64,000 nt of DNA from Acidobacteriota bacterium (GCA_019347945.1 JAHWKK010000003.1:31059-95058), one strand, 5' to 3'. Counted from the stretch's first letter, positions 13,591 to 17,648 are shown. A program made the numbers and translations. Notes: generated by a model from the letters alone, not told the origin.

Positions 13591-13889
13591 GGCACAACTT
13601 CCGCACGATCCGGAGAGATGGGCGAGTTCGGAAAAGTTCTTCTGCTCGCGCTGATTCCAGCTGCCGGAGTGATCGGCGGGGGGCTCGTCGGGGAACTGAT
13701 GGCGATCAGCCGCAAGGCGAGAAGCATGGCGCTTCATGCCGCGGCCGGTATCGTCCTTTCAGTAGTTGCGGTGGAACTGTTGCCGGAGGCCATCACGGTC
13801 GATCCGCCCTGGGCGGCAATCGTTGCGTTCGCGTGCGGCGGGCTCTTCTTCGTCGGCATCGATCGCGCGGTCGATCTCATCGCAAGTCG
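13591..13889 (+). repeat. Truncated duplicate of the 5' end of the ZIP transporter gene (direct repeat copy A; gene fragment)
   Basis: 13625..13889 matches 16930..17194 with 1 mismatch in ~265 bp (first ~95 codons of the ZIP gene, MGEFGKVLLLALIPAAG...). Similarity decays upstream. Copy A keeps an ATG and reads into unrelated sequence (ORF 13618..13962). Confidence 0.8.
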
Positions 13890-14023
13890 GGATGGGGAAA
13901 GTTGGGGTCAGAGCCAGAAACGCAACTTAACGAGGTGGCGAGTGAAAAGTCCGCCGAGGTAAAATCCCTCTGCGGCCTGCCACCGGTCAGTCGCCGGCAC
14001 AGCTCCGGGGTGCTTCCGGACGA

Positions 14024-16627
14024 TCACTGGCGATCAGACCCCTCGAGCATCCAGACGTCTCCTCCCTCCGGACGCGATCGGTCGAATACGACCCACTGGC
14101 CATCGGGTGACCAGGACGGGTAGTCGATCCTCACCTGGGAGTCTTCGAATTCGAGAATCGTCCTCGTCTCTCCGGTCGCGAGCGGCGCCACCCATAGCCG
14201 CTGGTGATTCGAGACATCGATGACATGCGAACGGTCCGGCGAATACGAGTGGTGATACCCGCCTATGATCGCGGTTGGTTGCTCGTCGCCACCGGCGATT
14301 TCGATGAACGCGAGGCGGGAAGGGGATGTGGCGTTCGAGACGAACGAAACGGCCCTGGAGTCCGGGGTCCAGCGGATGTAGTGAACGTCGATGCCGTTCT
14401 TCGTGACCTGGCGCTGGTTCGAGCCGTCCCGGCTCATCACCCACAATTCGAGTCTGCCATTGGCGTCCGACATGTAGGCGATCATGCTGCCATCCGGTGA
14501 GTAAAAGGCATGAGTCTCACTAGAGGGATCGCGGGTGAGCTGCCGAAGCGAGCCGTTCCGCAGATCGACCTCCCAGATGTCGATCGATTGGCCACGGCCG
14601 GAAAAGAAGACGAGATGGGTCCCGTCCGGTGACCACACCGGCTGGAAGTCACCACCCGGTCCACGTGTCACCTGCTTCGCGGCGTCATCCTCGAGCGTCC
14701 TGATCCAGATGTTCATGTCGCCGGTCCGGTCGGAGTTGAAGGCGATCGCCGACGCGTCGGGAAACCACGAAGCCCGGCTTTCTTCGCGTGTGGTCGCCTC
14801 CACGACCTCAGGAGAGCCCGCCACGTTTCCCCCGGGGGTGACGGGGAGCTTCCACAGATCGGAATTCTGCCGAAGGGTCGTCATCGCCAGCCGGTTTCCA
14901 TCGGCGGAGAGGGCGAGATCAAGATCGTGTCCCGCGCCGGTCGTCACCTGCTCCGGAGGCTCGGGGAATGAGTCGTCCGGCGCTGCGCGGCTTCTCCAGA
15001 CGTTGATCCCGCCTCCCCGGTACGAGGAGAAATAGACGTAATCGCCGGACCAGACGGGGCCGACGTCGAGGATCGAGTCTTTCGTGAGCCATTGTGTCTC
15101 TTCCGTTTCGAGATCGAGAATCTGAATGTCGAACTGCGTACGATCCGAATACTGGAAGACGATACGGTCGCCGCCCGGCGACCAGCTCGGACGAAGATGC
15201 TCGCTCGCTTCGGTCGTGTCAGTCGTCGCCTGCCTCGGATTGCGGCCATGAGGATCCGCGATCCAGATCCGGCCACTGCCGCTCCATTGGGCCGAGAACG
15301 CGATTCGATTCCCGTCGGGAGACCACGCCGGGTCGAAGGCATCGCGAATGAGAACGTGCTCCGCTCCGCCCCCGAGATCGATCGACCACACGTCTCCGCC
15401 GGAGTAGGCGCCGTAGACATCCCCCGGCGCGAGTCGCTGGCCCTTCTCCCGCGAACGTACGAAGAGGATCGTCTTGCCGTCGGGAGACCAGGCCGGATAG
15501 ATATCATCATAATCCCCGAACGTGAGCTGTCGTTCCTCCGCGTCGCCAATCGATTTCAGGAAGAGCTTTCTGAGGTTCCCGGTCTCTCTGGTGAAGACGA
15601 TCCATTTCCCGTCCGGCGACCAGGAGGGGAACTGCTCGACAGCGCTCGCGGACGTGAGCTGCGAGAGGGTTCTGGGGGAGCTGGCCGCTGCTTCTCTCAC
15701 TGTCTCATGAGGTGCGACGTCGTCACGAGCGATCCATACGACGACCGCTGCTGCGGCCAGCAGTAACACGAGAGCAATCCACATCGCTGGACGAGATTTG
15801 CCGTGCGTCTCGTGGGTCAGCCGGCGAAGACGAAGCCCGAGATCATGGGCGGACTGCAGACGCCTTCCTCTGTCCCTGGCCAGGCACTCGCTGACGAGCG
15901 CCTGGAGGGAATCGGGAACACGTTCGAGTGCGGGTGGCTCGTCGCGAAGGATCGCGCTCGTCGTTTCAGAGGCGCTCGGCCGCAGAAATGGCGGGCGGCC
16001 GGTGATCATTTCGTGAATGATAGACCCGAGGGAGAAGAGATCGGTGGTCGCGTCGACCGTCTCACCTCTGAGCTGTTCGGGTGACATGTAAAGCAGGGTT
16101 CCGATGACGGCACCCGGTGCCGTTCTTGCCCGGGTCGGATCCGATTCCGTGAACTCTTCCGAAGACCGGACGAGACCGAAATCGAGAATCTTCACCTGAT
16201 CGTCCGGTGTGATCATGATGTTGTCGGGCTTGAGGTCGCGGTGCACGATTCCCTTGGCGTGGGCGGCGGCGAGACCGTCGCAGATTCGGGAAGCAATGTC
16301 TATCGCGCGGCGCCAGGGGAGCGATCCGCGAGAGAGACAAGCCCGAAGAGTCTTCCCCTCGAGCAGCTCCGTGACGAGGTATTGGGTGTCGCCCGCGATG
16401 CCGAACTGGTGAACCTGTAGAACGTTCGGATGGGAGAGCGCGGCAAGCGCACGAGCCTCCTGCTCGAAGCGCGCAACCGACTGCGCGTCGTCCCTGTGGA
16501 TGATTTTGATGGCGACCTCACGATTCAGCTTTCGGTCGATGGCTCGGTAGACCTGCCCCATGCCACCGGATCCGATCTGCTCGATAATCTCGTAGTCGCC
16601 CAGTTCATGACCCGGCGCAAAGCTCAT
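14024..16627 (-). CDS. Serine/threonine protein kinase with a C-terminal TolB-like WD40 beta-propeller domain
   Basis: Hanks kinase motifs GSGGMGQVY, VAIK, HRDLKPDNI, DFGL. TM segment, then repeated PD40/TolB-like blades (YPAWSPDG, FSPDG, WSPDG...). 867 aa. Confidence 0.85.
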   Translation of the reverse strand: MSFAPGHELGDYEIIEQIGSGGMGQVYRAIDRKLNREVAIKIIHRDDAQSVARFEQEARALAALSHPNVLQVHQFGIAGDTQYLVTELLEGKTLRACLSRGSLPWRRAIDIASRICDGLAAAHAKGIVHRDLKPDNIMITPDDQVKILDFGLVRSSEEFTESDPTRARTAPGAVIGTLLYMSPEQLRGETVDATTDLFSLGSIIHEMITGRPPFLRPSASETTSAILRDEPPALERVPDSLQALVSECLARDRGRRLQSAHDLGLRLRRLTHETHGKSRPAMWIALVLLLAAAAVVVWIARDDVAPHETVREAAASSPRTLSQLTSASAVEQFPSWSPDGKWIVFTRETGNLRKLFLKSIGDAEERQLTFGDYDDIYPAWSPDGKTILFVRSREKGQRLAPGDVYGAYSGGDVWSIDLGGGAEHVLIRDAFDPAWSPDGNRIAFSAQWSGSGRIWIADPHGRNPRQATTDTTEASEHLRPSWSPGGDRIVFQYSDRTQFDIQILDLETEETQWLTKDSILDVGPVWSGDYVYFSSYRGGGINVWRSRAAPDDSFPEPPEQVTTGAGHDLDLALSADGNRLAMTTLRQNSDLWKLPVTPGGNVAGSPEVVEATTREESRASWFPDASAIAFNSDRTGDMNIWIRTLEDDAAKQVTRGPGGDFQPVWSPDGTHLVFFSGRGQSIDIWEVDLRNGSLRQLTRDPSSETHAFYSPDGSMIAYMSDANGRLELWVMSRDGSNQRQVTKNGIDVHYIRWTPDSRAVSFVSNATSPSRLAFIEIAGGDEQPTAIIGGYHHSYSPDRSHVIDVSNHQRLWVAPLATGETRTILEFEDSQVRIDYPSWSPDGQWVVFDRSRPEGGDVWMLEGSDRQ

Positions 16628-16922
16628 GCGTAGGAGACAAGCTTACCCCGGATCATCTCGGTCGGTGGAGTCCGGAGCCGGCGCGGCACCCCGACATCCG
16701 GTCCGGAGGCCCTACCCTCACCTGCGGTCCGAAGGAAAAGGAGGAAAAGTGGAGCCAACTCCAAGACCTTACCGCAAGTGCCTGCGTCGCCGAGCTCGTC
16801 GCGCGCCTCGTATCCACACCACTTTCCACCTCCTCGCGACACATCTCATGAATCATCCTGGCTGAGCTTCCATGCTCTGGGTCCTGGCGGTCGCGAGGCA
16901 CAATTCCCGCACGATCCGGGCC

Positions 16923-17648
16923 ATGGGGGAGTTCGGAAAAGTTCTTCTGCTCGCGCTGATTCCAGCTGCCGGAGTGATCGGCGGGGGGCTCGTCGGGGAA
17001 CTGATGGCGATCAGCCGCAAGGCGAGAAGCATGGCGCTTCATGCCGCGGCCGGTATCGTCCTTTCAGTAGTTGCGGTGGAACTGTTGCCGGAGGCAATCA
17101 CGGTCGATCCGCCCTGGGCGGCAATCGTTGCGTTCGCGTGCGGCGGGCTCTTCTTCGTCGGCATCGATCGCGCGGTCGATCTCATCGCAAGTCGCGAGGA
17201 GAATGGCGGGCGCGGGCCGTGGATGATCTACGTGGCGGTCGCCATGGATCTTTTCACCGACGGCATCATGGTGGGGTCCGGCAGCACCGTTCGCTTCAGT
17301 CTTGCTCTGATGCTGGCGACCGCGCAGATTCCGGGTAACCTTCCCGAAGGTTTTGCGACCGCCGCAACGATGAAGCGTTCCGGAGTCGCCCGGAAGTCTC
17401 GTCTTGCAGCGCTGCTCGCTCTGACGCTCGTTGCAGTCGCAGGAGCCTGCAGCGGCTACTTTCTCCTGAGGGACCAGCCACTGGTCTGGCGAATGGCCAC
17501 GCTGGCCTTTACAGCAGGAATCCTGACGACTGCAGTCGTCGAAGAGATCATTCCCGAATCCCATGAGAAAGGCGAGGCGCGCGCTGCAGTGCTCTTTTTC
17601 ATCGGAGGCTTCGTTCTCTTCATGGCCATCGCGTCCTACGTCGGGTGA
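16923..17648 (+). CDS. ZIP family metal transporter (ZupT-like)
   Basis: Eight predicted TM helices. ZIP signature region with His/Glu pairs (HNFTDGIMVG-like MDLFTDGIMVG; EEIIPESHEKGE). N-terminus MGEFGKVLLLALIPAAGV. Alternative upstream ATG at 16872. Confidence 0.8.
   Translation: MGEFGKVLLLALIPAAGVIGGGLVGELMAISRKARSMALHAAAGIVLSVVAVELLPEAITVDPPWAAIVAFACGGLFFVGIDRAVDLIASREENGGRGPWMIYVAVAMDLFTDGIMVGSGSTVRFSLALMLATAQIPGNLPEGFATAATMKRSGVARKSRLAALLALTLVAVAGACSGYFLLRDQPLVWRMATLAFTAGILTTAVVEEIIPESHEKGEARAAVLFFIGGFVLFMAIASYVG

Follow-up and report, generated by a model that had tools for sequence, protein, structure and literature searches.

A stretch of 64,000 nucleotides (nt) from an Acidobacteriota bacterium (GCA_019347945.1, JAHWKK010000003.1:31059-95058; hereafter the window) contains a single Ser/Thr protein kinase gene that is flanked on each side by a copy of the start of a ZIP-family metal transporter gene. 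The downstream copy is part of an intact ZIP gene, while the upstream copy, designated ZIP', is truncated. We conclude that the locus is very probably a real, non-programmed recombination scar that includes a dead 5' fragment of the ZIP gene. An earlier interpretation made without knowledge of the source (the sequence-only reading) had offered a duplication scar as one of its options, and the structure is indeed best read as a recombination or duplication scar, with one abrupt and one fading edge. The sequence is part of a metagenome-assembled genome (MAG) deposited at NCBI, in which the genes of this region carry the locus tags KY459_028xx and encode the proteins MBW3563633 to MBW3563637 and beyond.

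The complete repeat consists of 313 nt of the ZIP gene start. A repeat search returned it as a direct repeat of 275 nt with 99% identity (13618-13892 versus 16923-17197) and a start-to-start offset of 3305 nt. Based on a 31-mer scan and base-by-base comparison, the copies are identical at positions 13624-13790 and 13792-13889, which correspond to 16929-17095 and 17097-17194. The sole mismatch within this core of 266 nt is a C at 13791 versus an A at 17096, a synonymous change in the third position of codon 58. A near-perfect repeat of this length is far beyond chance expectation, since the remaining repeated 31-mers of the 64 kb are confined to five other repeat families. Upstream of the core, about 41 nt of weaker similarity (roughly 80-86%) follow. 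Codon 2 carries a synonymous third-position change (13623 C versus 16928 G), the four bases preceding the ATG differ by a 1-nt indel and two substitutions, and the leader block 13577-13613 matches 16883-16919 in 32 of 37 positions. Beyond position -41, the copies show no similarity to each other.

The right edge of the repeat is abrupt. Past the junction 13889/13890, the agreement with the intact ZIP gene drops to 5 of 10 bases and then to background level. The segment between the two copies comprises 2993 nt and holds one Pkinase + PD40 gene on the opposite strand, in agreement with the sequence-only reading, which had placed a single opposite-strand gene there. The same reading had described a near-identical pair of about 265 bp with one differing base, which proved accurate to within one base in its coordinates, and an upstream decay of identity over about 40 bp, which corresponds to the weakly similar leader. 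Two interpretations of this leader were tried and rejected. It is not a dispersed motif, as it is present at the two repeat sites only in the window, and it is not a regulatory RNA, as the shared 41 nt yielded no Rfam match even at E ≤ 1 and folding energies no better than those of shuffled sequences.

The downstream ZIP gene is full-length and colinear with its homologues, whereas the upstream copy runs into unrelated sequence after codon 91. This difference supports the interpretation of the upstream copy as a displaced fragment. The intact ZIP protein is covered to 100% in comparison with 242-aa (amino acid) homologues and aligns end to end with homologues of 242-248 aa, all sharing the start MGEF/MREF. 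In contrast, the ZIP' open reading frame (ORF) reached 18.4 bits on the Zip model PF02535, below the cutoff of 35.1, and is ZIP-like at residues 1-91 only. The proposal of a truncated ZIP duplicate therefore stands, while the length of about 95 codons given for it has to be corrected to 91. NCBI lists the ORF as a hypothetical protein (KY459_02815; MBW3563635.1). Probably, however, the ORF is a ZIP pseudogene fragment and should be treated as such in annotation. For the intact gene, the NCBI model MBW3563637.1 (258 aa) begins 17 codons 5' of 16923 (window 16872-16922). Since all close homologues begin at MGEF/MREF, which corresponds to 16923, the NCBI start was probably called 17 codons too far upstream.

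Divergence is distributed unevenly along the repeat. In the leader (-41 to +6), 9 of 47 aligned columns differ between the copies, compared to 1 of 266 in the core (+7 to +272; Fisher's exact test, p = 1.7e-7). With the comparison restricted to substitutions in the 37-nt block, the values are 5/37 versus 1/266 (p = 1.2e-4). The leader is thus about 14-19% diverged and the core 0.4%. Such heterogeneity, with a homogenised tract beside an older, diverged part, is the pattern by which gene conversion is recognised. One recent duplication can be ruled out, since the whole 313 nt would then be equally similar. An old duplication alone is also ruled out, since the core would then hold many synonymous differences. 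The mosaic identity therefore requires a second process and a history of at least two steps. This second process could have been gene conversion of one direct repeat by the other, in a tract reaching the end of homology; a repair patch that was primed in the diverged leader and then copied the core; or a donor with a nearly identical ZIP sequence but a different leader.

For independent comparison, the Logan k = 31 assembly of run SRR15827330 was used. Contig L001 (SRR15827330_471952) corresponds to window positions 13860-16808 with 100% identity, and the kinase product is identical in the NCBI MAG and in Logan. A second contig of the same run, L169, matches positions 5384-12614, also with 100% identity. 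The start of L001 lies 30 nt (k-1) ahead of the final identical base in the repeat, and the contig crosses 13889/13890 into the kinase flank. Because this contig spans the junction, the connection between ZIP codon 91 and the 3' flank of the kinase gene is present in the reads. Its start exactly k-1 inside the repeat end indicates that the repeat is a branch node in the independent assembly as well.

As a specific path we tentatively favour the entry of a segment with the kinase, the leader and the ZIP 5' end into a resident ZIP gene through one homologous and one illegitimate junction. A segment of about 3.0 kb, consisting of the kinase gene, its upstream region and the ZIP leader with the 5' end, would have entered the 5' part of the resident gene. 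One end of the exchange would have been homologous and located inside the ZIP sequence. The other end would have been illegitimate, joining resident ZIP codon 91 to DNA 3' of the kinase gene at 13889/13890. In this process, resident ZIP sequence between codon 91 and the crossover would have been replaced, and the old leader with codons 1-91 would have been left upstream as a dead fragment behind the DUF1440 gene. The intact ZIP gene would then read from a divergent promoter region that it has in common with the kinase gene. The near-identity of the core could reflect nearly identical donor and recipient ZIP sequences or, more likely, gene conversion between the repeats, with the leaders keeping their older divergence. 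Homology-facilitated illegitimate recombination (HFIR), Campbell-type single crossover of a 3.3-kb circle and unequal sister-chromosome exchange would be equivalent routes to the same structure. Shown directly are the anatomy, the truncation, the mosaic identity, the lack of mobility genes among the scanned ORFs and the presence of the repeat-to-kinase junction in reads; the order of events, the part that moved and the conversion step are what we infer here. Consistent with the path, one edge of the repeat is abrupt, while the other fades into diverged homology.

Several points weigh against this path. The kinase and ZIP genes are native-like for the window in GC content, codon usage and tetranucleotide profile, so that the composition of the kinase segment gives an import no support. 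Neither an empty site (DUF1440-ZIP without the kinase) nor a donor arrangement (kinase-ZIP without ZIP') was found among the relatives examined. The junction from repeat to kinase is the only one seen outside the MAG; the other three rest on the MAG itself. In addition, the right end of L001 lies at 16808, 75 nt short of the repeat leader and at a position where the window has no repeated 31-mer. This end may be due to strain polymorphism, a second genomic copy or a coverage gap. Microhomology, which abrupt junctions of the HFIR type usually show, is weak at 13889/13890 (5/10, not significant), and the mosaic identity has to be accounted for by additionally assuming either conversion or a donor that was itself mosaic. 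The proposal of a recent insertion made by the sequence-only reading can be kept for the core only, as the leader holds older divergence. Nothing points to the kinase as the inserted part, its codon usage and tetranucleotide composition being native-like and no relative offering an empty site.

The main rival, a templated ectopic repair patch in which the kinase was always located beside ZIP and only the ZIP fragment was inserted, is rather unlikely in our view. According to this explanation, a break 3' of the kinase gene would have been repaired by priming in a pre-existing, diverged leader-like sequence of about 41 nt, copying of about 266 nt of the ZIP 5' end and illegitimate rejoining at 13889/13890. 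The succession of diverged leader, perfect copy and abrupt end would be explained in a single step, and the native composition of both genes is consistent with it. Ectopic integration of short patches is a known mutation class (SPDIR, bioRxiv 10.1101/2023.11.22.568220), and a 71-nt inverted patch of an Ice_binding-like gene, located 3.8 kb from its source and described below, indicates that short ectopic fragments do occur in this region. However, the origin of the required leader-like sequence beside DUF1440 is not explained. Positions 13614-13623, directly before the perfect core, are the most diverged and would make a poor primer terminus. Moreover, documented SPDIR patches are short microindels.

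Less probable still is an assembly artefact, meaning either a strain chimera joined via the common ZIP 5' sequence or a collapsed (kinase+repeat)n array. The metagenomic source of the genome, a longest exact repeat stretch of 167 nt and the independent confirmation of the repeat-to-kinase junction only are all compatible with such an artefact, as are the breaks of the Logan contigs at the repeat and at 16808. With A and C as the outer flanks, R as the repeat and B as the kinase segment, the de Bruijn graph of A(RB)nRC would be the same for any n. On the other hand, the junction between ZIP' and the kinase flank is present in the reads, so the ZIP fragment adjoins the kinase gene whatever the left join may be. 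The copies also differ in specific variants (13623 and 13791) and have distinct leaders, and A-R-B-R-C would be the sole linear path that uses each junction once.

Hallmarks of mobile elements were searched for in the window. In the ORFs at 10.5-21.6 kb and in most of the large ORFs in the rest of the 64 kb, Pfam identified kinases, transporters and enzymes, but no recombinase, integrase or transposase. The window yielded no tRNA or tmRNA and no Rfam family, in the locus not even at E ≤ 1, and the edges of 13890-16882 have neither inverted repeats nor a shared core site. An insertion sequence element, a composite transposon or a miniature inverted-repeat transposable element (MITE) was rejected on account of the missing terminal inverted repeats and transposase and of a duplication of 313 nt instead of 2-14 nt. 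An integrase-type element or genomic island was likewise rejected, given that there is no recombinase and no tRNA or tmRNA, and that the repeats at 13.6/16.9 kb and at 47.7/50.8 kb share no sequence. A simple tandem duplication does not fit either, as only 313 of 3305 nt are doubled and the kinase gene is single in the assembly. A foreign origin of the kinase segment gained no support from its GC content, codon usage and tetranucleotide profile, which are all native-like. As no machinery, sites or compositional anomaly were found, nothing points to a mobile element, a programmed cassette or a recently imported foreign segment, and the cassette exchange that the sequence-only reading had considered was not borne out, no recombinase, att-like site or inverted repeats having been found. 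A programmed element is accordingly most improbable. In such an element, the kinase gene would be a cassette that moves, inverts or is excised, with the repeats derived from ZIP serving as its attachment or recombination sites in cassette exchange or a phase switch. Direct repeats that stem from the end of a gene and leave the target gene restored do resemble the att sites of integrative islands, and a similar geometry exists at 47.7-50.9 kb, but besides the missing enzymes, tRNA and edge sites, the repeat sequences of the two loci are unrelated and the closest kinase homologues are found in unrelated contexts without ZIP.

ZIP-based scans of GTDB genomes and JGI metagenomes yielded no relatives; the best ZIP homologues are 66% and 63% identical and have unrelated neighbours. 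The nearest kinase homologues are 61-62% identical, and the best ones (57-62%) have no ZIP or DUF1440 gene nearby. Scans with the 341-aa protein encoded upstream of DUF1440 returned 160 loci with identities of up to 67%, none of which has synteny with DUF1440 or ZIP. Exact-product look-ups with the 241-aa and 258-aa ZIP proteins, a 195-aa DUF1440 protein and the 114-aa fragment returned no contigs, and a literature search for the run, protein and locus-tag identifiers gave nothing relevant. The unique segments 13487-13576, 13890-14023 and 16628-16882 match nothing else; for 13890-14023, the comparison covered the rest of the window and 168 fetched loci, of which L001 alone matches.

Near relatives at about 89% nucleotide identity were found in the Logan contigs L004 and L005 and in a Thermoanaerobaculia MAG (GCA_035524865, L006). 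Judged from these matches, the organism is in or near the class Thermoanaerobaculia. The three relatives share only the 341-aa gene and, where the contig extends, DUF1440. Homology with L004 and L005 ends about 5 nt past the DUF1440 stop codon, at about 13486. Beyond this point, the relatives carry a 276-aa gene, gluconate 2-dehydrogenase subunit 3 and a GMC oxidoreductase, and neither ZIP nor the kinase. On the other side of the shared two-gene block, a DUF3108 gene is present in the relatives, while the window has an ECF-type (extracytoplasmic function) sigma factor. Since relatives at about 89% identity differ on both sides of the 341-aa gene and DUF1440, the neighbourhood has been rearranged even among close relatives.

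Two other gene-fragment repeats were observed in the window. The first is a direct repeat of about 175 nt (47695-47869 versus 50772-50947) with 91% and then 97% identity (about 93% overall) and a 1-nt indel. The repeated piece combines 56 nt of intergenic DNA with the final 38 codons of a TPR gene (46209-47813), and a single co-directional CBM9/DUF5916 gene (47936-50686) lies between the copies. Ahead of the second copy, at 50694-50770, lies a 77-nt fragment with 94% identity to 63803-63879, where a minus-strand ORF has its 3' end; this ORF extends past the end of the window at 64000. A predicted ORF of 91 aa on the minus strand at 50696-50971 (orf91) was rejected as a real gene; it has no Pfam match and is best read as the 77-nt C-terminal fragment plus the antisense TPR 3' fragment. 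This locus also fits a homologous exchange at a gene end with an illegitimate join, leaving a displaced end fragment behind. The sequence-only reading had pointed to the same geometry at 47.7-50.9 kb. The geometry does recur, but differs in detail, as here a 3' gene end is repeated, the identity is about 93% and the enclosed gene is co-directional. A common mechanism for the loci at 13.6 kb and 47.7 kb is possible.

The second is an inverted repeat of 71 nt with 90% identity (25360-25430 versus 29238-29308), the arms of which bracket a minus-strand Ser/Thr kinase gene with NACHT and TPR domains (25898-29035). Its left arm is an orphan interior fragment (aa 210-232) of the Ice_binding-like gene at 29114-29935 on the minus strand. 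Hence, the 64 kb contain three pairs of gene-fragment copies, the members of each pair lying 3.1-3.9 kb apart and enclosing exactly one large sensor or surface gene. This clustering suggests a rearrangement-prone, signalling-rich region. If the three scars did share one process, this would be relevant to the question of how Acidobacteriota assemble their very large families of kinases and sensors. We regard it as doubtful, though, that the scars reflect a recurrent, recombinase-independent addition of single large genes at the ends of resident genes, and that such addition is a main route by which Thermoanaerobaculia expand their signalling repertoires.

The features of the locus and its surroundings are listed in Table 1.

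Table 1 Coordinates of the kinase locus, its repeat parts and other genes in the window
Feature	Position	Strand	Basis
Conserved hypothetical protein, 341 aa	11289..12314	-	ORF list; no Pfam match
DUF1440 gene, left flank	12948..13481	+	Pfam PF07274; 177-aa product identical to MBW3563634.1
Diverged leader, repeat copy 1 (ZIP -41 to +6)	13577..13623	+	9 differences in 47 aligned columns versus 16883-16928
Truncated ZIP' ORF, 114 aa (91 ZIP codons and an unrelated tail of 23 codons)	13618..13962	+	ORF list, tblastn
Near-identical core, repeat copy 1 (ZIP +7 to +272)	13624..13889	+	1 mismatch in 266 nt versus 16929-17194
Abrupt junction of ZIP fragment and kinase 3' flank, putative illegitimate join	13889..13890	.	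Identity falls from 100% to background
Unique 134-nt segment 3' of the kinase stop codon	13890..14023	.	Matches only L001 among the window and 168 fetched loci
Ser/Thr protein kinase with N-terminal Pkinase domain, one predicted transmembrane segment and PD40 (TolB-like) beta-propeller repeats	14024..16627	-	Pfam
Unique divergent intergenic region, kinase start to ZIP leader	16628..16882	.	No similarity to the region upstream of copy 1
Diverged leader, repeat copy 2	16883..16928	+	Alignment with copy 1
Intact ZIP-family metal transporter, 241 aa	16923..17648	+	Pfam PF02535, 41.2 bits versus cutoff 35.1
Near-identical core, repeat copy 2, within the intact ZIP gene	16929..17194	+	Alignment with copy 1
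Hybrid sensor histidine kinase with Reg_prop/Y_Y_Y domains, right flank	17992..21582	+	Pfam
Large sensory protein genes	14024-16627, 25898-29035, 61170-63479, 17992-21582, 40098-44027, 57805-60897		

The kinase matches the Pfam models PF00069 at 8.5e-53 and PF07676 at 2.6e-61. The window is unusually dense in large sensors, with three Ser/Thr kinases (PD40; NACHT-TPR; TPR) and three hybrid histidine kinases. The kinase domains are only 40-47% identical among themselves and are therefore old paralogues, not recent copies. Homologues of the 341-aa protein with 57-67% identity are present on more than 500 contigs from Thermoanaerobaculia, Gemmatimonadota, Planctomycetota, Dehalococcoidia and Micromonospora, and the protein appears to represent a widespread, uncharacterised and well-conserved family. 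A palindromic, MITE-like element is located at 12618-12753, with 46-nt arms that are 93% complementary and lie 44 nt apart. Its host intergenic region (12345-12925) is about 400 nt longer than in the relatives at about 89% identity, which lack the element, and L169 ends at 12614, immediately before it. Elsewhere, two tandem DUF4402 genes (37039-37548 and 37767-38402) are 95% identical over 300 nt, with a period of 728 nt that includes their upstream regions. The pair, part of the region 36047-38402, adjoins a PapD_N chaperone-like gene and a gene for a 1312-aa SPOR/CarboxypepD_reg protein, and these genes together may form a pilus-type operon.

For the organism, the arrangement would mean that ZIP shares a divergent control region of 295 nt with the kinase gene, and ZIP' may be transcribed behind DUF1440. 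The 266-nt repeats would also expose the kinase segment to RecA-dependent deletion or tandem amplification. The case is of modest value as a clean natural example of the way in which intragenic recombination can add a neighbouring gene, rewire the promoter region of a transporter and leave behind a dead gene fragment without mobile-element machinery. In addition, the mosaic identity illustrates that such events cannot be dated well from the identity of the repeats alone.

Among known systems, integrase islands insert into gene ends (tRNA or tmRNA genes, or att sites in protein-coding genes) and carry a replacement end. The kinase locus resembles them in its direct repeats from the end of a target gene and in the target gene being kept intact. 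It differs from them in having no integrase or excisionase, a repeat of 313 nt instead of tens of nt, a single kinase gene as the insert and a duplicated 5' end. With SPDIR (bioRxiv 10.1101/2023.11.22.568220), the locus has in common that ectopic intragenomic sequence appears at a new site with abrupt ends. The patches described for SPDIR are microindels, apparently far below 266-313 nt, and the left edge observed here lies in extended diverged homology, not in microhomology. Campbell-type single crossovers and duplication-amplification intermediates, as known from textbooks, likewise have direct repeats flanking an insert, one of them 3'-truncated and one complete, and they can be lost or amplified through recombination between the repeats. 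In contrast to Campbell-type integration, no circle or vector is known here, and the leader portions of the repeats are diverged.

One-sided integration by homologous and illegitimate junctions (HFIR) has been documented experimentally (PMC3240628). It was proposed as the source of displaced 'orphan' gene-end fragments in effector-immunity arrays of type VI secretion systems and hypothesised for Rhs (PMC5361080). The locus agrees with these systems in that one junction would be homologous and the other, with its abrupt edge, non-homologous, that the incoming segment would carry its own copy of the gene end, that the old end is displaced as a fragment and that no dedicated recombinase is involved. 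Unlike in these systems, the displaced piece is the 5' end of a housekeeping-type transporter gene and not the 3' end of a toxin gene, there is one event instead of an array, the insert has a native composition, and donor and recipient states were not observed. Taken together, the feature looks like a further instance of something already known, in which recombination duplicates part of a gene or displaces a gene-end fragment, and not like a new genetic system. It is mildly unusual only in its mosaic identity and in the clustering of similar scars, and neither would surprise a specialist.

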